A stretch of DNA of 64,000 bases, taken from positions 18,063 through 82,062 of the forward strand of contig JAGVWZ010000016.1 in the NCBI GenBank assembly GCA_018304045.1, written 5' to 3'. The translations under genes were made by a program, and so were the position numbers. Of this stretch, positions 4,253 to 58,075 are shown in pieces. Source of the stretch: Candidatus Pacearchaeota archaeon. GTDB lineage: Archaea > Nanobdellota > Nanobdellia > Pacearchaeales > GW2011-AR1. The notes below the pieces were generated by a model. It was given only the letters and a program-made list of their open reading frames with translations. It had not been told where the DNA came from and did no database searches. How positions within the stretch are numbered: position 1 is the first letter of the stretch; every line of letters starts with the position of its first letter.

Positions 4253-4741
4253 CTAATGATGTTCCCCATTAGCTTCTTTATCTAATTTTTCCAATTCTTT
4301 TTTATATAGTTTTTCTCCGAGGTCTTTTTTAAAAGAGCTCTTTCCATGTTTCATTTCATAATCTAAAATAGCTTTTTTTAATCCACTTGAACCAAGCACA
4401 GAGCAATGAACTTTAACAGAAGGCAATCCTTCAAGTTTATCAACAATCTTCTGATTTGATATCTTCTTTGCTTGTTCAATTGTTTTCCCTTTTGCAATTT
4501 CACATAATGCTTCAGAACTTGCAATTGCACTAACACATCCGAATGTTTGAAACTTAATATCTTTTATCTTGTTGTCCTTAACCTTAAGATAAATTTTCAT
4601 AATGTCCCCACATTGAGGATTTCCAACTTGCCCAACCCCATCTGGATTTTTTATTTCTCCAAAATGTTGAGGATTTGTAAATCTCTTCAAGACTGCCTTT
4701 GTATACGCATTAAAATTATTTTTTTCTTGTTTTTTTACCAT
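4253..4741 (-). CDS. iscU: Fe-S cluster assembly scaffold IscU/NifU-like
   Basis: Three conserved scaffold cysteines in context (NPQCGD, FGCVSA, HCSVLG) plus a Lys/Glu-rich C-terminal extension. Confidence 0.8.
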   Translation of the reverse strand: MVKKQEKNNFNAYTKAVLKRFTNPQHFGEIKNPDGVGQVGNPQCGDIMKIYLKVKDNKIKDIKFQTFGCVSAIASSEALCEIAKGKTIEQAKKISNQKIVDKLEGLPSVKVHCSVLGSSGLKKAILDYEMKHGKSSFKKDLGEKLYKKELEKLDKEANGEHH

Positions 4742-4838: not shown

Positions 4839-5147
4839 TCATTTTCTTTTAATTTTCTTCTTTTCCTTTAATTTATTCTCTCCATTAAGTTCTTTCACAA
4901 GTTCATCAACATCAATTCCATGAACCAATGCACCTTGTTCCAATGTTTCAAATCCAGCCATACCGCAGCCAATGCAATGCATTCCTTTTTCAAATAATAT
5001 CATGATTGCATCTGGATTTTTTTCAATTATTTCATTGAATGTCATTTCTTTAGTTATCTTTATTTTCAAATCTTTCTTTGTTTCTGAAGATTTGGAAAGA
5101 CTGAAATTGTTAGTTTCAGACAATTTCTTTATTTTTTGTTTTTTCAT
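4839..5147 (-). CDS. DUF1858-like redox-disulfide domain protein
   Basis: C-terminal segment EIIEKNPDAIMILFEKGMHCIGCGMAGFETLEQGALVHGIDVDEL matches the DUF1858 (hybrid-cluster-protein-associated) CxxC pattern; sits between iscS and iscU. Confidence 0.5.
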   Translation of the reverse strand: MKKQKIKKLSETNNFSLSKSSETKKDLKIKITKEMTFNEIIEKNPDAIMILFEKGMHCIGCGMAGFETLEQGALVHGIDVDELVKELNGENKLKEKKKIKRK

Positions 5148-5256: not shown

Positions 5257-6438
5257 TTATTGTATCGGACTCATTTTTCTTAATTTTTCAACAATTCCAG
5301 GTAATATTCCTAAAACATAATCTATTTCTTCTTCTGTATTAAATTTTCCAAGACTTAGTCTTATTGAACTATTTATTTGCATATGAGAAAGTCCAATAGC
5401 AGTAAGCACATGGCTTTTTTCAAGTGAATGTGACGCACAAGCACTTCCTGTTGAACTACTTATTCCATAGGAATCTAAAAATCCACCAATTGCTTCACCT
5501 TCAATATTATTGAATCTTATGTTAATATTATTTGCAAGTCTTTTACTTCCACTAGGCCCATTTAAATTTGTATTCGGAATTTTTAAGATTCCTTCAATTA
5601 ATTTATCTCTTAATCTTCCAATTTCCTTTACATCTTTGTGACCCATAAGTTTCACAGCCTTTGCAAAACCAACAATTCCAGAAACATTTTCAGTTGAACT
5701 TCTTAATTTGAATTCATGTCCACCTCCATGAAATAAAGGAGTTATTTTGTTCTTAACATCCTTGTTTATATACAATCCCCCAACTCCCTTAGGCCCATGA
5801 ATTTTATGAGAATTCAAAGTTAAAAAATCAAGATTCATTTTATTAACGTCAATGTCTATCTTAGTATAGCTTTGGCAAGCATCTGAATGAAAATAAACAT
5901 TATTTTTCTTACAAATTTTTCCAATTGCTTCTAAGTTCTGTATTGTTCCTATTTCATTATTGCCATGTATAACACTTACAACAAGAGTTTTATCAGTAAT
6001 AGCTTCTTCTAGTTCTTTTAAATCAATAAAACCTTCAGAATCAACATTAAGATAAGTTATTTTAGCTCCAAGTGTTTCAAGCCATTTACAACTATTCAAA
6101 ATACAATCATGTTCTATTTTTGTAGTAATAATATGATTCTTTTCTTTTCCAAAAGAAAAAAACAATCCTTTTAATGTAAAATTATTGCTTTCTGTTCCTC
6201 CAGAAGTGAATATTATTTCTTCTCTTTTTGCACCAATTGATTTTGCAATTACATCCCTAGAATCTTCAAGAGCTCTTTTTGCTTCCTGCCCAATAAAATG
6301 CTGAGAGCTAGCATTTCCAAATTTTTCAGTAAAATAAGGCAACATCTCTTTAACAACTTCATCATCAACCCTAGTTGTTGCAGCATTATCTAGGTAAACT
6401 TTTTCAACTTTTGTTTTGTTTTTATTAAATATTCCCAT
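5257..6438 (-). CDS. iscS: cysteine desulfurase (class V aminotransferase, IscS/NifS type)
   Basis: Conserved desulfurase blocks (SHKIHGPKGVGGLYI) and the active-site loop SSGSACAS. Confidence 0.9.
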   Translation of the reverse strand: MGIFNKNKTKVEKVYLDNAATTRVDDEVVKEMLPYFTEKFGNASSQHFIGQEAKRALEDSRDVIAKSIGAKREEIIFTSGGTESNNFTLKGLFFSFGKEKNHIITTKIEHDCILNSCKWLETLGAKITYLNVDSEGFIDLKELEEAITDKTLVVSVIHGNNEIGTIQNLEAIGKICKKNNVYFHSDACQSYTKIDIDVNKMNLDFLTLNSHKIHGPKGVGGLYINKDVKNKITPLFHGGGHEFKLRSSTENVSGIVGFAKAVKLMGHKDVKEIGRLRDKLIEGILKIPNTNLNGPSGSKRLANNINIRFNNIEGEAIGGFLDSYGISSSTGSACASHSLEKSHVLTAIGLSHMQINSSIRLSLGKFNTEEEIDYVLGILPGIVEKLRKMSPIQ

Positions 6439-10682: not shown

Positions 10683-11297
10683 ATGAATTTTACAAATTTT
10701 GATCAAGTTCTGAATTTTATACAAGTTCAAGGATATATTGTAATTTTAATCCTAATGATTATTGAAGGCCCAATAGTTACAACAGCAGCTGCATTTGCAG
10801 CTTCTTTTGGTATTTTTAATATTTTTATTATATTCTTCTTGTCAATTGCAGGGGATTTGATTGGAGATATTATTTATTTTGAAGTAGGAAAAAAAGTAAG
10901 AGGAAATTTTATTGAAAAATATAGCAAGAGAATAGGTGTAGAAAATAAAACTCTAAAAAATATTGAGTCTATGCTTCATAATAATTTAATGAAAGCAATG
11001 GTTTTTATTAAATTTACACCTGTATTAGCAAGTATAGGCCTTCTTTTAAGCGGAGCACTAAGAACTCCCAGAAGAAAGTTTATCATTGCCTCATTATTAA
11101 TAACAATCCCAAGAGCAATATTCTTTACAGTGGTTGGATATTATTTTGGATTAGCAATAAAACCAATATTAAAATACTATAACTTAACAGGATACATATT
11201 TTTTATAATTGTGGTATTAATGCTTATTTTTTATATCTTTTACAAATGGTTCATTGAAAAATTAATCCTTTCTTACACTAAAGAAATAAGTAAATAA
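10683..11297 (+). CDS. DedA/VTT-family membrane protein
   Basis: GYIVILILMIIEGPIVTTAAAFAASFG ... AGDLIGDIIYF pattern of DedA (SNARE-associated Golgi protein) family. Confidence 0.5.
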   Translation: MNFTNFDQVLNFIQVQGYIVILILMIIEGPIVTTAAAFAASFGIFNIFIIFFLSIAGDLIGDIIYFEVGKKVRGNFIEKYSKRIGVENKTLKNIESMLHNNLMKAMVFIKFTPVLASIGLLLSGALRTPRRKFIIASLLITIPRAIFFTVVGYYFGLAIKPILKYYNLTGYIFFIIVVLMLIFYIFYKWFIEKLILSYTKEISK

Positions 11298-47070: not shown

Positions 47071-47231
47071 CTTTTATAAAAAGAAGTTATAAGGATTATT
47101 GTTCTAGATGAATCTCAAAAATATGGGCCCACGCGGCCCTAGAATCGCGGAGAGCTCGGTGTAAAAAATAAGAACCTTTTTGTATCCAAAAGAATAATAA
47201 TATTTATAAACTGTACAGTTTATTATATTGT

Positions 47232-48497
47232 ATGTACAAAGATAGATACATTAGAAGAAAAGGGGAATTTTTGGATAATAAGGATATTAATCCTAAAAAT
47301 AGGAAGGTTACTGAAAAGTTCTTTGAATTTGAAGAATACAAACTAAAGAGGAAGCAAGGATTAGCAGAGGTTGATGAAAAATCCTACAAAACACTTTATT
47401 TCTATGTTGGTAGATTGATTAATTTGAATAATTGGTTTAAGAATAAAGATTGGTCTAAATTAACTGAAGAAGAAATAAAAAAATTAATTGATGATTTAGA
47501 AGACGGAAAAATAACAACTCATAAAGGGACAAGATTTACAGACAGGAGTTTGTATTATCAAATGATAAAAGGAAAATTATTTGATTTAGTTGGTAAGAGT
47601 TTTATTGCAACACAAATCCTAAAAGAGTTCTCAATAAAAGGAAGAGAGTTTAGAGATGAAGTAAGATATATTGAAGAAGAGTCTTTTAGAAAAATTGTTG
47701 ATTGTGCTCCAAAGTCAGAACATAAGTGTTTGATGTGGTTAGCTTTTGATATAGGTGAGAATATTGGAACTCTCTTAGAATTGACTAGAGAAGATTTCCA
47801 AAGACAAATCAATCCAGACACTAATGAACCAGAATATTTAGTTATGCTAACTAAAGATAGGATTAAGAGGAGTAGAACTGCAAGAGGTGAAACTACCAAT
47901 CATCAGGAAACTGTAAAATATTTAGATATAATTCTTAGAAACCTAAAACCAGCATCACCAAAAACTTCCACTAGCCGGTATCGCAGGTCACTTAAAACTT
48001 TAAATGAACTACATCCAGAAAACAAACTATTCAAGTTTGGCCACAAAGCATCTGTAAAGTTTTTTGACAGAGCAGTTGTAAGAGCAGGAGTAAAATGTTT
48101 ACCTGGTGGTCAAAAAGTTACATGGAAAGATTTGAGAAGTTCTATGGCTTGTAATTTATTGAGAAAAGAGTGGTCCAGAGACGAGGTAAATGCTAGACTT
48201 GGACATAAGCCTTCTAGTCGTATCATAGATTCTTACATCAACTATCTTTCATTAGATAGAAGAAAACCACAAAAGAAAGTTTATGAAAGCAGTTTAAAAA
48301 AGATTGAAGCTGATTTTGAAAAACAAAAAGAAGTTTCAAAATTACAGGGATTAAAAATTGAAAATCTAAGAGAGGATATAAAACAAATCAAAACAGACTT
48401 TAAATTAGCAATGGAAAAACAAAGAAAACAATTAATTGAAATTGTTATGGAATTAAAGAAGGGACAAGTAAAACCTATTGTTGTTAAGAGTCATTAA
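47232..48497 (+). CDS. tyrosine recombinase/integrase
   Basis: C-terminal catalytic region with R...LGHKPSSRIIDSYINY (H-x-x-R, Y); preceded by GC-rich palindrome gggcccacgcggccc at 47124..47138. Confidence 0.65.
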   Translation: MYKDRYIRRKGEFLDNKDINPKNRKVTEKFFEFEEYKLKRKQGLAEVDEKSYKTLYFYVGRLINLNNWFKNKDWSKLTEEEIKKLIDDLEDGKITTHKGTRFTDRSLYYQMIKGKLFDLVGKSFIATQILKEFSIKGREFRDEVRYIEEESFRKIVDCAPKSEHKCLMWLAFDIGENIGTLLELTREDFQRQINPDTNEPEYLVMLTKDRIKRSRTARGETTNHQETVKYLDIILRNLKPASPKTSTSRYRRSLKTLNELHPENKLFKFGHKASVKFFDRAVVRAGVKCLPGGQKVTWKDLRSSMACNLLRKEWSRDEVNARLGHKPSSRIIDSYINYLSLDRRKPQKKVYESSLKKIEADFEKQKEVSKLQGLKIENLREDIKQIKTDFKLAMEKQRKQLIEIVMELKKGQVKPIVVKSH

Positions 48498-49066
48498 AGT
48501 CTTCTGGGCATTTCAAATAATTTTATCATCTTCTCATCTAACTTCTTTTTAAAATCGTCAGGTCTACCTTTTTGTTTAATAATATAATAGATAACATAAA
48601 ACTTTATTGCAGAGATAAAAATATTTTCTCCAGCATTAAGTTCACATATAACTTCTCTTGCTTCAGGATTATCATATATTTCATTTAAGAATTTCTTTTC
48701 TCTTTGATTTAATTTAATATGCAATTCATCAAATGAATCAAATATAAATTTTATTTTAATTTTATGAACAGGGCTTCTTTGAGTATATTTTGTTCCATTG
48801 AAGTTTGTTTTATTTATTGCATCTGTTCCTTCTTCAATATAATCTGCTTCTTTGAGTTTATCAAATACTTTTGTCACAGCTCCAATACTTTTTACATCTT
48901 TTTTAGTATTTGGATATAATTTTCTCGTAACTTCTCCATGTGTAACAAACTTTCTAAAATATTCTAAAGCGACTTTGTTTTCTCCTATCCCTTTTATCAA
49001 TGGGGGTCTTACAGCAGGATAAACTATTATTGGTTCATCATCTAAAGTTTTTTTTCCTTTCTTCAT
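48494..49066 (-). CDS. hypothetical protein (mobile-element gene)
   Basis: ORF only. Confidence 0.3.
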   Translation of the reverse strand: MKKGKKTLDDEPIIVYPAVRPPLIKGIGENKVALEYFRKFVTHGEVTRKLYPNTKKDVKSIGAVTKVFDKLKEADYIEEGTDAINKTNFNGTKYTQRSPVHKIKIKFIFDSFDELHIKLNQREKKFLNEIYDNPEAREVICELNAGENIFISAIKFYVIYYIIKQKGRPDDFKKKLDEKMIKLFEMPRRL

Positions 49067-49115
49067 TTTAGGGTACCATTAACAGGTATATTAAGTATTT
49101 ATACTTTATTATAAA

Positions 49116-49259
49116 ATGGAACTACAAAAACCAATAAAATGTGAATGCAAGAAGTGCGGCTGGTGCTGGTATTCTACACTTGGCAGAAAACCAAAAGTCT
49201 GCGTCAGGTGCAAGAGGTATGACTGGCAGGAGGAGAAAGATGAGCGAAAACAGCAATGA
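49116..49259 (+). CDS. 47-aa zinc-ribbon protein (MELQKPIKCECKKCGWCWYSTLGRKPKVCVRCKRYDW...)
   Basis: CxCxxC...CxxC; alternative frame to the listed ORF 49141..49395, whose N-terminus (MNARSAAGAG...) looks non-genuine. Confidence 0.35.
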   Translation: MELQKPIKCECKKCGWCWYSTLGRKPKVCVRCKRYDWQEEKDERKQQ

Positions 49260-49521
49260 TTCTATTCTCCTCCAAAAAGAGTCCTTAGACAGAGTCTTTG
49301 ATATAATTGATGAAATGCAGGGCGATATTATTGGTTTAGAGTCAAAATGGTTAAAAGAGGTGCAAGAGGATGACAGAGAACAACAGAGTGATTGATATGA
49401 ACCTATCTGAACCTAATAGCCAATACTTCTCACCACTAGATGATATAATATATGGTGGTCTTATTTTTCTTATATTCTTCCGGAAGAAAAGATTGATTGA
49501 AAGGAGGTTCCGAACTACAAA

Positions 49522-52500
49522 ATGATACCACCTATTCAACTTAGAAAACCCCAATTTAAGTTTATACTGTTGGGTAGGTGGAATCAATATAAAGATAGTA
49601 ATAAAACAATCCATATTTTTGAACCAAAAACGAAGGAAGAATTTGATTCTATAAAAGAGCAGGGTTTTGCCTCCATTGGAAAAGCTCCTATTGAATCTGG
49701 CTGGACTAAGAATTCAGACTATATTTATGCAGACCCAAAACTACTTAGCCATATCTCTGCAGGATATAATTATGGTGTAAAATGTGGACCTGGAAGATTA
49801 AGTATCCTTGATGTTGATGACACATCCATTATCCCAGAGTTAGATAAGATGGTTCCAGAAACCCTAACCATTGAAACAGGAAGTGGAAAACAGCATAGGT
49901 ATTTCCTAGTTCCTGTAGGAACTCCTAAAATAATTTTAGAAAAGAATAAAGTCCATTATGGAGAACTGCAAGGTCCTGGTTCTCAATGTGTTGGGGCAGG
50001 TTCAAAACATCCAATTGGCGGAAAAGAGTATAATGTTATAAAAGATGTGGATATTACAGAACTTTCACAGGAGATTATAGATAAAATTAAAGATAACTAC
50101 ACAGACTTTAATAATGACCCTATAAAAGTCATTTCTCCAGATTGGAATCAGTATAATAAGACAAATATAAGTGACTTATTATCAATAACCACTTTAGTTA
50201 ATTTAGGTAGTATGAAGAAAACTGGTGGAGAGTATTTTGGTTCCCATCCAGTTCATGGCTCACAGACAGGTATGAATTTTTTTATTAATCCATCTAAAAA
50301 TCTCTGGCATTGTTTCAGGTGTGATTCTGGAGGAGATTCTTTATCCCTCTTAGCAGTCAATGAAGGTATTTGCGGATGTAGCGACTTTTCAAGAAGTGGA
50401 AAGAAACTAAGGGGAGAAGATTTTATCAAAGTGAAAAAAATTGTTGAAGAGAAATATAACATCAAGATTCCTCAAAAAGAACTAGAATTAACTCCTTTAA
50501 AGAATATCAAAGTAGAGTTAGGTAGGCGTGTTAAAACAATCGTTTCTGTTTTAGATATGACTCCGGGAGTTAGTATGGTTGTAGGGTATGAAGCAACTTG
50601 TCCACAATGCCTTAGAAATACAATTTTATACCACAAAAATCCTACCTCTTGCTCAATAGCTTTTGCAGAAGAATTAAAAAATGAAAATAAAGCCGGTTGT
50701 CTTGATAGTGCTAATAAACCTATAAAAGTAGATATCAAACCAATACATGAAACAGGTTATTTATTGAGTGTATTTGACCCAAAAGATACTGGAAATAATA
50801 TGCAAATAACTCCAATTTTTATAAAGAATGATTTAATACCTAAAGATTACAAATCTAAAAAAGATTGGGAAGGAGATTTATTAATAAAACCCCTTATTTT
50901 AGAAGGTAAAATCGGAGTTTTTCAATCTTTTAAAAAAAAGTTTGAGGATTGGTTTATTCATGTGGAGAATTATGAGTTTGAGGTGAAAAAAGAAGATGTT
51001 AACTACACACTTTTAAGAAAGTTTGGAGATATCGAGAGGGGTAAGAATTTTTTTGCAGAAAATTTCGCTCCAAGAATCTATGATAGAACACTAGCTAAAA
51101 AGATGTACACATTAACATTACTTTCACCAATAAAAATAAATTTACCTAATGATGAAATTGATTATGGAATAATAAATACGATAGATATGGGTGATGCTGG
51201 ACAAAGCAAAACAAAGCTTAGTAAAGAAACCTTAAAATGTGCAAAGGGGACCAACTCTAAATTTATCAGTGTTGAGAATTCTACAAATAGGGGATTACTA
51301 GGTTCAGTAGTAAAAAGTCAGAATTCTGAATCATGGACAGTTAAGGTTGGAGAGATACCTAAAGCAAGTAATGGATTAGTTTGTTTAGATGGTTATTCAA
51401 AGTTGTCACCTGACGACATGACTCAATTTAGAGGGATTTTAGAGGAGAAAGAGTTTCAGATTACAAAAGCAGGTGGAGTGCAAAAAGAATGTCCTGTTAG
51501 AATTATAATGTTAGGAAATATCGTAAAACCAATAGGGCAATACTCCACCAAACATCAAGCAAGTTTTAATATGGGTGCAACAGAGTCTGATGAAACAAAT
51601 AAATTTTCGGGTCCAGACAGAAGAAGAATTCATCATGTGTCTATTGTTGCTGATTCTGATACCAATGCTAGGGATATTGATATGCATTTATCAAAAAAAT
51701 ATGATAAAGAAAAAATAAGAGAATTGGAAAATTATTGGTCTAATTTAAGAGCTTTCTCTTGGACAAGAAAAGCTGGAGATTTTATCTGGGAAAGTGGTAT
51801 TATAGAATATGTTCAAACAAAAATAGACAGTCTTAGAAAGAAATATCCCAGGTTCTCAATGCAATATGGTGTCTTATCTAAAGGAGGGTCAAAGATGTTT
51901 ACAATCCAGTTACCCACAGTAGCAATGTTACATGAATCAATTGATGACAGTCACAAAGTCGTTATCAGGAAGGACCATGTTGATTGGTTATACCATATGT
52001 ACTTAGAGGAATTTAATGAGTTAGGATTGGGGGCTGAAAATGAAGTATATAGTATTCATAAATTGCATGCTATAGCTATTAGTCGTAATTGTTCAAAGGA
52101 AGTAAAGGAGATATTATTACTTTTACAGAGATATGGGGGAAATCAAACTGCAATTGAAAATGCAGGAGTTGTAAGTCGTATGCACATTAGTCGAATGTTG
52201 AGCAATCCAATAGAGTATGAACTAAAACACATCAGTGGTATAAAACCTCATTGGTATAAACTTAATGAAGGTTCTGGCGAACCAAAAGAAACAAGAGAGG
52301 GTATTAAATTTTTCCCTGATGACGATTTACCATCTATAACAAAAAGGGGCACAGGTTCTTTTACAGATTTTGGTAAAATCTTAATTCAAGAAATATTAAG
52401 GTTAAAAAATGAGGAACTTCAAAAGGATAAGATAATAGGAATCCCCGATTTAGAAGATGTTACATCTGTTACAGGCAGGAATGAAAGTTTAGATAACTAT

Positions 52501-52761
52501 GCAGTTGGCGGCGTTACATCTGTTACAGGTGTTACACCAAAAGAGGATATATCAAATAAAAATATAGAAAAAGTAGGAGAAGTAATACAAAGTAATACTA
52601 GTTCTATTGAAATTAAGAAAAAGAATATACTTGATATTAAAAATAGTGTAACAGATGTAACGAGTGTAACAAAAGATATATTGAATCTCAATAATACTAT
52701 AGGGGATAGTGTAATAGATGTAACAGAAGAACCTGAGTATGAAACGGAGGATTTAACATGA
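49522..52761 (+). CDS. replication protein: primase-polymerase-like N-terminal region + SF3 (D5-type) helicase, C-terminal VTSVTG repeats
   Basis: N-terminal SILDVDDTS / HCFRCDSGGDS (prim-pol and zinc-binding-like); Walker A-like MGDAGQSKT; Walker B VCLDGYSKL; 1079 aa. Confidence 0.6.
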   Translation: MIPPIQLRKPQFKFILLGRWNQYKDSNKTIHIFEPKTKEEFDSIKEQGFASIGKAPIESGWTKNSDYIYADPKLLSHISAGYNYGVKCGPGRLSILDVDDTSIIPELDKMVPETLTIETGSGKQHRYFLVPVGTPKIILEKNKVHYGELQGPGSQCVGAGSKHPIGGKEYNVIKDVDITELSQEIIDKIKDNYTDFNNDPIKVISPDWNQYNKTNISDLLSITTLVNLGSMKKTGGEYFGSHPVHGSQTGMNFFINPSKNLWHCFRCDSGGDSLSLLAVNEGICGCSDFSRSGKKLRGEDFIKVKKIVEEKYNIKIPQKELELTPLKNIKVELGRRVKTIVSVLDMTPGVSMVVGYEATCPQCLRNTILYHKNPTSCSIAFAEELKNENKAGCLDSANKPIKVDIKPIHETGYLLSVFDPKDTGNNMQITPIFIKNDLIPKDYKSKKDWEGDLLIKPLILEGKIGVFQSFKKKFEDWFIHVENYEFEVKKEDVNYTLLRKFGDIERGKNFFAENFAPRIYDRTLAKKMYTLTLLSPIKINLPNDEIDYGIINTIDMGDAGQSKTKLSKETLKCAKGTNSKFISVENSTNRGLLGSVVKSQNSESWTVKVGEIPKASNGLVCLDGYSKLSPDDMTQFRGILEEKEFQITKAGGVQKECPVRIIMLGNIVKPIGQYSTKHQASFNMGATESDETNKFSGPDRRRIHHVSIVADSDTNARDIDMHLSKKYDKEKIRELENYWSNLRAFSWTRKAGDFIWESGIIEYVQTKIDSLRKKYPRFSMQYGVLSKGGSKMFTIQLPTVAMLHESIDDSHKVVIRKDHVDWLYHMYLEEFNELGLGAENEVYSIHKLHAIAISRNCSKEVKEILLLLQRYGGNQTAIENAGVVSRMHISRMLSNPIEYELKHISGIKPHWYKLNEGSGEPKETREGIKFFPDDDLPSITKRGTGSFTDFGKILIQEILRLKNEELQKDKIIGIPDLEDVTSVTGRNESLDNYAVGGVTSVTGVTPKEDISNKNIEKVGEVIQSNTSSIEIKKKNILDIKNSVTDVTSVTKDILNLNNTIGDSVIDVTEEPEYETEDLT
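52459..52728. repeat. iteron-like repeats GTTACATCTGTTACAGG (x2 direct) and GTAACAGATGTAAC (x2 inverted) inside the 3' end of the rep gene
   Basis: Copies at 52459..52475, 52513..52529 (+) and 52647..52660, 52714..52727 (reverse complement); also encodes the VTSVTG peptide repeats. Confidence 0.55.
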
Positions 52762-53012
52762 GTAAACAAATAGATTATAACATAGAATTTTTCGGACTTG
52801 TTCCTTTCAAATGTAAAAAATGTAAAACTAAATTAAAAATGGGTCATATTCCATATAAGGATAAAAGAATTACCATCCCACTACTTTTTTGTCAAAAGTG
52901 TAATGAAATCTTGGAACTGCAAGTATTCTATCATGATGATTGTCCTGCATCAAAAGCAAAAAAGATTAGGGATAAATTTGCTAAAAACTATGGATTAAGA
53001 ATTATTAATTAA
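52758..53012 (+). CDS. zinc-ribbon protein
   Basis: CKKCKTK...CQKCNE. Confidence 0.4.
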   Translation: MSKQIDYNIEFFGLVPFKCKKCKTKLKMGHIPYKDKRITIPLLFCQKCNEILELQVFYHDDCPASKAKKIRDKFAKNYGLRIIN

Positions 53013-53063
53013 TTTTTCCGTCGACAAAGGGATAGTATTTAAACTTTAACTCATTAGAGATAT

Positions 53064-53528
53064 ATGAGGAAAGATAAAGTAAGATTTGGTGCAGTTGTCT
53101 TTATGGTTTTATTTGTTGGTTTGTTAGTTGCAGGATTGTTCTATTTAAGTTATGGAATTGAACAAACTTCTTTTAAATTAAATGAAAAGAAAACAGGAGT
53201 GCAAGAAGATAATATAAAATTCACGGATGCAACATGGCACTTAGTAGATTTTTCTTCCTGCGAAAATGCTTATGATGAAAACAGGGCAATGCAGGAAATT
53301 GGTTTAATATATACTATTCCTTATTATGGAAATGATTATAACTGCAATCTTCAGATAACAACATACTATGATGATGGAAAGGTAAGCACACCTCAATCTA
53401 AAAGATTAGATGAAACAATTCATACCTTTAGTGGATTTAATGTGTTTGACAGCTATAAGTTTACTATTTGTTGCACAGATAATTTTGATACTGCATGTAA
53501 ATCAAAGATGGTTGAAAGTTATTGCTAG
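53064..53528 (+). CDS. membrane-anchored Cys-containing protein
   Basis: N-terminal TM helix; six or more Cys. Confidence 0.35.
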   Translation: MRKDKVRFGAVVFMVLFVGLLVAGLFYLSYGIEQTSFKLNEKKTGVQEDNIKFTDATWHLVDFSSCENAYDENRAMQEIGLIYTIPYYGNDYNCNLQITTYYDDGKVSTPQSKRLDETIHTFSGFNVFDSYKFTICCTDNFDTACKSKMVESYC

Positions 53529-53680
53529 GGGTTGCTTATATCAATTAGTTCGGAGTTCAATTCTATTCAGACCCATTTTTATGAATACAGGATAAACAAT
53601 ATCTTAATCTTGTTGTATGGTCTGATACTCTGCTTGTTTATATACTTCTCCTTATGATTAAATAAATATTAAAGAATAAG

Positions 53681-54058
53681 ATGACAAAGTTAAAAGAGAA
53701 TGTAAATAGATTAAACGCCTTGCTTAAAGAAGGCAAAATTGCGGAGGCTTTTGAAAAATATTACAATCTGGATGTAACTATACATATTGATGGAAATCCG
53801 CCTATAACTGGGAAAGAACAAAAAAGAGAAATGATTTTTCTTCAAGAAATAGAAAAATTAAACAATGCCGAAATAAAGTTAGTTGCTTTTGGAGGAACTG
53901 ATAATGATGTTTCAGTAACAGAATGGGAAATAAATATTGAAAATAAAGAAGGAGTTAAAAAAATAATTTATCGTGTAAATATTCAACATTGGAAAGAAGA
54001 TAAAATTATTAATGAAAAGATATATTTTTGTGGTGACCAAAAATTCAAAGTAGAGTAA
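53681..54058 (+). CDS. SnoaL/NTF2-like fold protein
   Basis: Size and alternating pattern resemble the SnoaL-like polyketide cyclase/NTF2 superfamily; weak. Confidence 0.35.
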   Translation: MTKLKENVNRLNALLKEGKIAEAFEKYYNLDVTIHIDGNPPITGKEQKREMIFLQEIEKLNNAEIKLVAFGGTDNDVSVTEWEINIENKEGVKKIIYRVNIQHWKEDKIINEKIYFCGDQKFKVE

Positions 54059-54343
54059 ATATATATTTTTATAGTTGTAATCAAATCATCTGGATAAATA
54101 CCAGTTTATTAATCCAAGCTGATTAATTAGAGCATAAGCTGTTAAAAAGACTGCAATAAACAAACATATGTACTTTGCATATTTCAGAATATCTTTCTTT
54201 TCTTTTGGAATTGCAATACTAAGAGTAAAGAAAATTGCTATTAAAAGAGGCATTAAGACTTTTTCTGTGTATCCTTGTATCATTTTACTATCTGGTAACT
54301 ATGTGGTAAATATACTATTTAAGTATTATGGTAACTAAGTTAT

Positions 54344-54613
54344 ATGAAAAAGGTAACCAAATGGGACTTAGTTAGTTATGTGCTTGCTAGTTCTTATAGG
54401 AAGAAAGTATTGTCTGCTTTATCAACCCCTAAGACTCCATCAGCTATAAGCAAAGAGATAAGCATAAACAAAACTCACATAAGCAGAGCATTAGCAGAGT
54501 TAGAAGATAAAGGTTTGATTAAGTGTTTAACTCCAAACTCAAAGAAAGGTAAGATATACTCAATCCAAGACTTAGGTAAAGAGACACTAACAGAAGTCAA
54601 TAAGCTAAAGTAA
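54344..54613 (+). CDS. winged-helix transcriptional regulator
   Basis: SAISKEISINKTHISRALAELEDKGLI HTH; followed by an 8-bp-stem hairpin aaagccca...tgggcttt (terminator-like). Confidence 0.5.
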   Translation: MKKVTKWDLVSYVLASSYRKKVLSALSTPKTPSAISKEISINKTHISRALAELEDKGLIKCLTPNSKKGKIYSIQDLGKETLTEVNKLK

Positions 54614-55120
54614 GCCAAAAGCCCATGTCGTTCTATGCCCGAGTAGTTGTGGGCTTTAAAAGAACTGTTAAACCCAAACAATTTAAACAGTTTAATTATA
54701 CCCTTTTATTAGTATATTATTTAACAATTTAATATACTCTGTGGGCACAGCAGGGCTACAGCACCATAACCAAACTAACTAAAAGGGTTAGTCTGACTAT
54801 ATTAAATTACTTTAATATACTAAATAAGTGTGCTAAAGATTTTAAGATGATTTGTCAGCTTAACTCTGATTAATTTTATGTGTTTGTTTTAATGGTTCAT
54901 TTAATCTTTTATGCTAAAAGATTTAACTTCTCAGATAAATAAAGGTAATGACTCTGAATTTATTTTTATATAAATTAAAATTTTTATATAAATTTTCATC
55001 CGGCGTCTCCGGCCTACGCGTATATATATATAATAAAATAGATAGCAGAACTAATAAACAGTTGTATGCGCATGATTGTGTGCATTAAAAGATAAAAGAT
55101 TAAGGATGGATTGATGTTAA

Positions 55121-57549: not shown

Positions 57550-57620
57550 GGGCTATTAGGCTAGTGGCAAACCGATTCCTTTACACGGAATATTCACCAG
57601 TTCGATTCTGGTATGGCCCA
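57550..57620 (+). tRNA. tRNA-Val (anticodon TAC)
   Basis: Acceptor GGGCTAT/ATGGCCC (one G:U); anticodon stem ATTCC/GGAAT with loop TTTACAC; T-arm ACCAG-TTCGATT-CTGGT; discriminator A; D-stem imperfect. Confidence 0.6.
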
Positions 57621-58075
57621 TATAAATAAAATGAAGACCTCCATAAAAATACTTTTAATTGTAGTATATTTAATTGGTTTTACATTGTTATTACCTTTCT
57701 TTTTTAGTATGCTTGACAAACTTCCTGATTCTTATGCTTTGGGAGTTATCGCTGTCTTGATTATTGTTTTTATGTATTGTTTTATTCCATATAAAATCTG
57801 GAAGTTGAAAAAATGAGTTCATCAGTTTTATACACTAGAGGAATACCAATATTGATTGGGGTTATAATATCTTTTATACTCTATCTACTCTCACAATGGC
57901 TTTTGAACAGAAAAAAATGAGATTGTTTACACAAAAAATTCACTAGTTTGATTTTGACATAATTTCACATGTTTTTTTATAGATTTTTTGTTTTAGAAAA
58001 GTTTATAAGTTTACAATATGGAAAAATATATAGGGGTGAGAAGCACCTCAGGAGCTTATTCTGAGAAGATTTAAG

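Follow-up and report, generated by a model that had tools for sequence, protein, structure and literature searches.

A putative replication origin of opposed hexamer arrays inside the 3′ coding end of a PrimPol-MCM replication gene from a Pacearchaeota integrative element

The replication origins of the staphylococcal pathogenicity islands (SaPI) are made of six to twelve penta- or hexanucleotide iterons lying right after the rep gene, with an AT-rich centre and at least two opposed iterons on each side of it (PMC9371898). These iterons are bound by the C-terminal winged helix of Rep, a self-loading initiator of the MCM clade that is fused to a primase in SaPI5 (PriRep5) (PMC9371898) and for which loading as two hexamers has been proposed (PMC9371898; PMC7581432); likewise, the Cch2 protein of the staphylococcal cassette chromosome mec (SCCmec) binds repeats just downstream of its own gene (PMC7581432). 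Here, I describe a 270-bp segment at the 3′ end of a replication gene (rep) in a 64,000-nucleotide stretch of a Candidatus Pacearchaeota contig (JAGVWZ010000016.1), referred to as the window, and argue that the segment probably serves an integrative element of about 8 kb as its replication origin, or at least as the place where Rep loads. Judged by its sequence, its closest match is the SaPI origin, of which it has every architectural feature except that the repeats lie inside an open reading frame (ORF).

The likeness concerns both the DNA and the initiator: the window has ten iterons, one of them degenerate, five opposed on each side of an AT-rich centre of 21% GC, and the presumptive initiator joins a primase to an AAA+ helicase that belongs to the MCM (pre-sensor II insert) clade. 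The differences are (i) the position of the arrays, which in the window are translated as part of the initiator whereas the SaPI and SCCmec sites are intergenic, just past the gene; (ii) the host, a DPANN archaeon and not a Firmicute; (iii) the primase, which in the window is an N-terminally fused PrimPol; and (iv) the C-terminal winged helix of the SaPI Rep, no counterpart of which was detected in the window Rep by Pfam or PDB profile search. The 60 PDB matches listed for the window Rep include no chain of a SaPI Rep, and no direct comparison of the two was made.

Origins inside initiator genes have been described in bacteria; ori-lambda is 'located within gene O' (PMC6022878), and repA of the telomere phages N15 and PY54 acts as a minimal replicon, PY54 being a phage for whose replication as a circular plasmid 'only repA is required' (PMC10612081). 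What the window would share with lambda O, N15 and PY54 is an origin in the coding sequence of its own initiator, the arrays lying in a linker-like part of the protein. The lambda O protein is not a helicase but recruits DnaB through P, and its iterons are direct and about 19 bp long; by contrast, the window Rep, in which Pfam recognises PrimPol, zinc ribbon and MCM only and no lambda O family (PF04492), carries its own MCM helicase. RepA of N15 is annotated as a large multidomain replication protein; in its gene, a known case of an origin inside a gene, the hexamer scan described below finds no phased arrays, which leaves it as a positional analogue only.

The archaeal plasmid pRN1 of Sulfolobus encodes ORF904, a PrimPol joined to a helicase of superfamily 3 (SF3) plus a winged-helix domain, of which two hexamers are proposed to load, and its origin is a 100-nt non-coding stem-loop 'without the iteron structure' located just 3′ of the gene (PMC4234260). 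The window would resemble this archaeal replicon in the fused primase-polymerase/helicase initiator and in an origin at the 3′ side of its gene, and differs from it in having iterons, a coding site and an MCM instead of an SF3 helicase, although a hairpin could still form. The alpha protein of phage P4 is a primase-helicase whose C-terminal winged helix binds short origin repeats and whose primase is of the bacterial Toprim type (PMC4234260). Alpha and the window Rep are alike as multifunctional primase-helicases with short repeats at the (in the window, putative) origin, yet the window primase is a PrimPol and its arrays are coding. The P4 iterons, for their part, are octamers in non-coding regions. 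At archaeal chromosomal origins, opposed origin recognition box (ORB) elements surround a DNA-unwinding element and are bound by Orc1/Cdc6, the loader of MCM, so that two MCM rings are placed head to head; the window has the same disposition of opposed recognition elements flanking an AT-rich, putative unwinding element, but no Orc1/Cdc6, a 6-nt motif in 9-bp phase instead of a long ORB box, and a helicase presumed to load itself. Classical iteron plasmid origins (of the Rep_3, pi or RepA kind, with direct repeats of about 17-22 bp, a dimer-monomer switching Rep and DnaA boxes) are different again, the window having 6-nt inverted units and no Rep_3-type protein.

The gene and the parts of the segment are as follows (coordinates of the window):

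49522..52761, + strand: replication gene rep, 1079 aa, consisting of PrimPol, CHC2 zinc ribbon, MCM AAA+ helicase, C-terminal region and repeat tail (Pfam PF09250, PF01807, PF00493)
52069..52455, + strand: conserved C-terminal region, aa 850-978, directly ahead of the arrays (from the homolog alignment)
52458..52473, + strand: left outer iteron pair, TGTTACA twice in 9-bp phase, encoding VTSVT
52513..52536, + strand: left inner iteron triple, GTTACA three times in 9-bp phase, encoding VTSVTGVT
52537..52646, no strand: central spacer, 110 nt, 21% GC, its + strand 55% A
52581..52599, no strand: spacer block AGTAATACAAAGTAATACT, with two TAATAC 10 bp apart (from conservation in the four-way alignment)
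52647..52670, − strand: right inner iteron triple, TGTAAC three times as read on the + strand, encoding VTDVTSVT
52710..52724, − strand: right outer iteron pair, TGTAAT (degenerate) and TGTAAC, encoding VIDVT
52726..52758, + strand: acidic C-terminal end EEPEYETEDLT, after the arrays (from the translation)

The MCM module of Rep is matched by PF00493 with E = 2.6e-19, and among the 60 PDB matches listed the best are cellular MCMs (MCM2-7 and archaeal MCM); a protein identical to Rep is recorded from an assembly of a Candidatus Pacearchaeota (DPANN). The original prediction, made from the sequence alone, had placed at the 3′ coding end of this gene two direct copies of a 17-mer and two copies of its reverse-complement core. 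The 17-mer GTTACATCTGTTACAGG is indeed exact at 52459-52475 and 52513-52529; the actual repeat unit, however, is the hexamer GTTACA in 9-bp phase, further copies of which had been missed. Both core sites exist, but GTAACAGATGTAAC has a single exact copy (52648-52661), the other (52711-52724, GTAATAGATGTAAC) carries one mismatch, and their coordinates had been off by 1-3 nt; similarly, the predicted peptide VTSVTG is encoded by the left copies, whereas the right ones encode VTDVT and VIDVT. On the + strand GTTACA starts at 52459, 52468, 52513, 52522 and 52531, and TGTAAC, which is GTTACA on the − strand, at 52647, 52656, 52665, 52710 (the degenerate TGTAAT) and 52719, so that the hexamers stand in mirror order, two and three to the left and three and two to the right of the spacer. 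Both arm sets are inside the rep ORF, as had been predicted, 37-303 nt ahead of its stop codon.

Such a cluster is not expected by chance. The window contains 38 exact copies of the hexamer, nine of which are inside the 270 bp (Poisson 4e-13 per 300-bp window), and the 14-mer, with at most three mismatches allowed, has 23 matches against 5.2 expected, a count that no shuffle reached; no second cluster of GTTACA was found in the element. The spacer, at 21% GC compared with 33% for the whole rep gene, is a putative DNA-unwinding element. The arms, 15-16 nt long, are 94-100% complementary to each other, the right inner arm (I1, 16 nt) being 100% complementary to 52512-52527, and the segment folded as single-stranded DNA has an energy of -31.4 kcal/mol (z = -5.5), with outer and inner arms pairing in a nested manner. 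No match to a known RNA family was returned by an Rfam search of the segment.

Close relatives of the window Rep are few. Scanning metagenomes with the single protein returned nothing, scanning them with an alignment returned one new relative (L085), and no close relative was found in phage and plasmid collections; the close set comprises the window and three full-length homologs, P0002 and P0003 (69-71% protein identity) and L085 (56%), in all of which the iteron layout is retained. Every hexamer position of the left inner triple is invariant across the four sequences, the left outer pair is present in the related elements L001 and L003 and missing in L085, and the right outer pair reads TGTAAC twice in L001, L003 and L085. 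The spacer block AGTAATACAAAGTAATACT is 95% identical across the four homologs (54/57 positions) amid sequence that varies; it might be a further functional site, active in melting or priming.

Since GTNAC is nearly self-complementary, a VTxVT peptide alone yields inverted symmetry at 10 of 14 positions, and selection on the DNA therefore had to be told apart from selection on the peptide. In all four sequences the left arms write valine as GTT and the right arms as GTA, and the codon ahead of each GTA always ends in T, completing TGTAAC; a case in point is L085, where CCT (Pro) has replaced AGT (Ser) as this codon and the T has been retained. In the four-way DNA alignment, identity to the window is 96.4% at the hexamer positions and 72.7% in the rest of the same span. 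Where the window and L001 or L003 have identical residues, the same codon is used at a rate of 0.90-0.91 in the tail, compared with 0.48-0.69 in the other 100-aa bins, the amino-acid identity of the tail being no higher than that of those bins. Homologs keep the repeats at the DNA level, a check that the original prediction had proposed; a conserved peptide repeat with synonymous variation, which it had named as the contrary outcome, was looked for, and the opposite was seen. By these comparisons of sequence, it is the DNA and not the peptide on which constraint acts.

Tripeptide-periodic tails were first seen in three distant Reps, where the DNA has the same architecture built from other hexamers. 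Distant Reps share with that of the window only the PrimPol domain and put the question to a more stringent test. Loci around PrimPol relatives were taken from genomes and viral contigs (82 loci, about 830 kb) and scanned for a chain of one hexamer at 8-12-bp spacing, with its reverse complement forming another chain no more than 300 bp away. Under strict settings 16 sequences matched (15 fetched loci and the window), with no match in five full shuffles of the 830 kb; under relaxed settings there were 20 matches in 19 of the 82 loci, with one match in three shuffles. Counted from where the PrimPol match starts, all hits fall 1.6-3.0 kb downstream, at the rep 3′ end, and none in the flanks of about 6 kb. 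Several more loci carry one-sided phased repeats at the same place. Examples are (locus, hexamers, position or encoded peptides where noted):

L005: GTAAGC three times, GCTTAC three times; left VSAVSSVS, right LTALTELT
L006: GATAC(A/G) three times, CGTATC four times; left DTHDTDDT, right VSSVSSVSSVS
L007 (3210-3347): GTTACA three times, TGTAAC three times, spacing 8,9 and 9,8; left YTVTQVT, right SNKCNPVT
L051 and L056 (Bathyarchaeia), L073 (viral contig): TGTTCC, inside the ORF; left VPxVPxVP, right GTxGTxGT
L014 (Parvarchaeota): GTCCAA, inside the ORF
L027 (Hermodarchaeota): ATTGTC, inside the ORF
L043 (Thermoplasmatales): TAACCT, inside the ORF
L039 (Methanotrichaceae): GCGGGTAGT, inside the ORF

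In all, some 15 other PrimPol-helicase lineages have the layout at the rep 3′ end, built from other hexamers. The two arms encode different peptides in some ten other lineages, including L014, L027, L039 and L043, and an intergenic version of the layout, 10-138 bp past the stop codon, is found in four: the bacteria-binned L037, L044 and L016 and the viral contig L068. The GC content of the spacer falls short of that of the rep gene in 18 of 19 loci, with a mean difference of 10 points. Arrays inside an ORF keep the 9-bp spacing with very few exceptions, as is expected if the reading frame constrains their expansion and contraction, whereas intergenic arrays are spaced by 8-12 bp. The helicase module varies, being an MCM in the window and of D5/SF3 type in many other loci with the layout, which indicates that the layout goes with the PrimPol-helicase initiator as a class.

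Some peculiarities of these loci may be added. The bacteria-binned loci (Omnitrophota, Kiritimatiellia and 'Bacterium R3-B46'; L016, L037 and L044) have intergenic arrays and the archaea-binned ones (L014, L027, L039, L043, L051 and L056) arrays inside the ORF, in a sample that is small and whose binning may be wrong. L073 shares TGTTCC with L051 and L056 and yet is closer in sequence to L005, L027 and L014, which have other hexamers. The pair GTTACA/TGTAAC also occurs with Reps dissimilar to that of the window in the region ahead of the arrays, namely in L007, in L067-L071 (about +2864 from the match start) and in L068 (8764-8847), the last with the arm order reversed, GTAACA to the left and TGTTACA to the right.

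The explanation that I favour for the 270 bp, as likely on the strength of sequence and analogy as the origin or loading function itself, is a bidirectional origin bound by Rep and overprinted by the C-terminal tail of this same initiator. The model is drawn from the SaPI Rep (an MCM-like self-loading helicase), the large T antigen of simian virus 40 and the E1 protein of papillomaviruses: the C-terminal part of Rep would read the hexamers, two helicase rings would assemble on the two arms in opposite orientation, the AT-rich centre would melt, and the fused PrimPol domain would then prime. Cruciform extrusion may contribute to melting, for the arms are able to pair (z = -5.5). The conserved region of 130 aa directly ahead of the arrays is the candidate iteron-binding domain and would probably be the part that reads the hexamers. 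That iteron-like DNA doubles here as coding sequence, as originally proposed, is supported by the comparative evidence, whereas Rep binding, melting, priming and origin firing at the site are what I infer from it.

Lying in an ORF, every hexamer of the arrays also codes for the dipeptide Val-Thr, and the tail peptide is thus largely dictated by the DNA element; the tail would be a tolerant linker to the short acidic C-terminus. Indeed, the frame of P0002 (71% identical; L003 gene 8001-12518, 1505 aa) runs past the arrays (10932-11282 onward) into a helicase domain of PIF1/AAA_30 type, so that the array-encoded segment is there an interdomain linker between MCM and PIF1; in the window the tail peptide looks like a passenger or linker leading to the acidic end. 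Similar ends are found in P0003 (EEEPEYEMDN) and P0007, and that of P0006 (EEPETETEDLTS), whose helicase is of RecA/AAA_25 type, is nearly the same as EEPEYETEDLT. A host factor might use this end as a docking motif, and the recurrence of the end in Reps with other types of helicase would explain why translation runs through the site. Acidic tails close many Reps of the Pacearchaeota type.

Several observations weigh against a Rep-bound origin at this place. Neither Pfam nor PDB profiles match a winged helix or any other DNA-binding fold in the region ahead of the arrays, and AlphaFold models of the Rep C-terminal region are unusable, with a predicted local distance difference test score (pLDDT) of 37 from the single sequence and 33 from a three-sequence alignment. 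The window, L007 and L068 share GTTACA and have no detectable similarity in that region, which is unexplained if it reads the hexamer. The close homologs are only four, and recent shared ancestry or recombination of tails would also raise synonymous identity. Among 55 loci with enough downstream sequence, the strict layout is present in 11, leaving about 44 without a strict match. In addition, pH6Ac of Methanothrix harundinacea (NC_016637.1; L086), a plasmid with a PrimPol Rep and the only one from a cultured host that was examined, carries its larger iteron arrays upstream of rep; its 3′ arrays may thus not be its main origin, and in some replicons such arrays may be an accessory Rep site.

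Repeat sets of pH6Ac lie at 690-1010, 4523-4605 and 5005-5029. Upstream of rep there are several phased hexamers and an 11-bp sequence repeated in tandem about seven times; a small inverted pair (ATCGCCTCC and GGAGGCGAT) is found within rep, in its 3′ coding end, and TGTCCA occurs three times both upstream of rep and right after its stop codon. Co-variation between hexamer identity and the protein region ahead of the arrays was tried as a further line of evidence and set aside as uninformative, given the GTTACA shared by dissimilar Reps and the TGTTCC of L073, whose nearer relatives have other hexamers.

The alternatives have to be weighed in the setting of the element, for which the following features of the window are relevant:

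47118..55070, no strand: module shared with the L003 and L001 elements, approximate extent (blastn, tblastx)
47232..48497, + strand: tyrosine integrase of the same element (weak PF00589 match)
52758-53012: 84-aa zinc-ribbon protein, starting on the rep stop codon (weak DUF7479 match)
54344-54613: small winged-helix regulator with a MarR/TrmB-like helix-turn-helix (Pfam)

The block at 47118-55070 is common to related elements on other contigs, which indicates that the window holds an integrative element of about 8 kb; the chromosome around it has about 29% GC. The arrays lie in the middle of the element, whose left border is about 5 kb and whose right border is about 2.3 kb away from them. The integrase of the element is about 90% identical to that of the L003 and L001 elements. 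The gene of the zinc-ribbon protein overlaps that of Rep by stop and start codon (ATGA, 52758-52761); the segment 52758-53012 has no similarity in L001, L003 or L085 by tblastx. In L085, the gene right after rep (1233-1700) resembles, from its translated sequence alone, a serine recombinase of the resolvase/invertase type, and this partial contig shows no rep-adjacent tyrosine integrase like that of the window, L001 and L003.

Rather than a start site, the arrays might be Rep-binding sites of another kind, that is, a cis enhancer, a copy-control ('handcuffing') element or an autoregulatory roadblock, with the origin elsewhere; I regard this as unlikely, though to be taken seriously. The crr region of phage P4, downstream of the alpha gene, provides a model for it, a protein bound at the arrays would sit, owing to the ATGA overlap, on the template of the operon transcript, and pH6Ac offers the example of larger arrays upstream of rep and small ones at its 3′ end. 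However, the window element lacks a second hexamer cluster to which the origin might be assigned, the AT-rich centre between opposed arrays, seen in 18 of 19 loci, is what characterises a melting site, and SaPI origins of the same layout are functional origins.

An improbable alternative is that nucleic-acid structure itself is the function, either in the manner of pRN1, as an origin formed by a long hairpin or cruciform, or as a structure at the mRNA 3′ end, the hexamers merely forming stems. The stable fold with nested pairing of arms, their complementarity over 15-16 nt and the pRN1 stem-loop just 3′ of a PrimPol-helicase gene speak for it; elsewhere, however, only the hexamers are complementary and the 3-nt spacers often are not (L051 and L073), so that stems would be broken every 6 bp, and a hairpin requires neither a phased single hexamer nor an AT-rich centre. 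The two ideas are not exclusive, as cruciform extrusion could assist an iteron origin.

It is more improbable still that the sites serve another protein of the element, be it as a centromere-like partition site, as arm-type sites of a recombinase or as an operator for the winged-helix regulator. The element does encode this MarR/TrmB-like protein and an integrase, and plasmid centromeres are often arrays of short phased repeats; on the other hand, Pfam identifies no ParA-like gene among the scanned ORFs of the element, the arrays are mid-element and not at its borders, and they follow the PrimPol-helicase gene whatever the accessory genes, which are a tyrosine integrase in the window, L001 and L003, the serine recombinase-like gene (by reading its translation) in L085, and varied neighbours elsewhere. 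Finally, a low-complexity VTxVT peptide repeat, kept by selection on the protein or arisen by slippage and with no role for the DNA, is hardly credible and was rejected: both window arms do encode Val-Thr and GTNAC is nearly its own complement, but codon choice is set by the arm in all four homologs, with the T kept across the Ser-to-Pro change, the arms encode unlike peptides in some ten lineages, and in four lineages the arrays are non-coding.

Returning to an origin read by Rep and overprinted by its tail, the design as such is known from SaPI, as that of a self-loading helicase; what appears to be new is its embedding in the coding sequence of the initiator and its recurrence across archaeal lineages. 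To my knowledge, hardly any replication origin of an archaeal plasmid, integrated element or virus has been identified, and for DPANN archaea not one. In the paper on the pTN2/pT26-2 plasmids, origins are predicted to be intergenic, a survey of archaeo-eukaryotic primases of mobile elements has no occurrence of 'iterons' and, in its passages on origins and repeats, nothing of this arrangement, and no description of opposed arrays inside the gene was found in the literature searched, which is not proof of absence.

Taking window and distant loci together, I lean, with a slight preference only, towards a widespread and undescribed class of origins of PrimPol-helicase replicons. Such a class would span uncultured archaea (DPANN, Bathyarchaeia, Thermoplasmata, Methanotrichales and Asgard) and some bacteria, and the rep 3′ end would carry an AT-rich centre between opposed arrays of a hexamer specific to each lineage; the frames of archaeal initiators would overrun the arrays, the iteron 'code' would dictate tripeptide-periodic tails whose peptides differ between the arms, and the frame would lock the spacing at 9 bp, as opposed to 8-12 bp in intergenic arrays. 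Were this true, origins could be predicted straight from metagenomes by a signature beside or inside the PrimPol-helicase gene, a minimal replicon consisting of rep alone would become conceivable for vectors in organisms without genetic tools, and the origin design of the self-loading helicases of staphylococcal islands would extend to archaeal initiators of MCM and D5 type. The locus would also provide a clear example from nature of dual coding, with a DNA array presumed to bind protein setting part of a protein sequence.

As to the borders of the element, no direct repeat of at least 16 nt flanks it as an att site. All three elements begin with the same sequence, TCGGTGTAAAAAATAAGAACC (window left border, 47118-47160). 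In L003 the left border abuts the reverse-oriented 3′ half of a tRNA-Val gene (5594-5644), 88% identical to the intact tRNA-Val of the window (57580-57630); the left-border flank of the window is different, with no obvious tRNA half and no partial copy of tRNA-Val found there, and the integration sites of the elements thus differ. At the right end of the module, the roughly 450 bp at 54617-55070 hold no ORF of at least 50 aa except the start of a 68-aa ORF on the minus strand (54475-54681) and are 73% identical to L003 13970-14417 and L001 7908-8362; this stretch may act as an att or a regulatory region, or it may encode a non-coding RNA.

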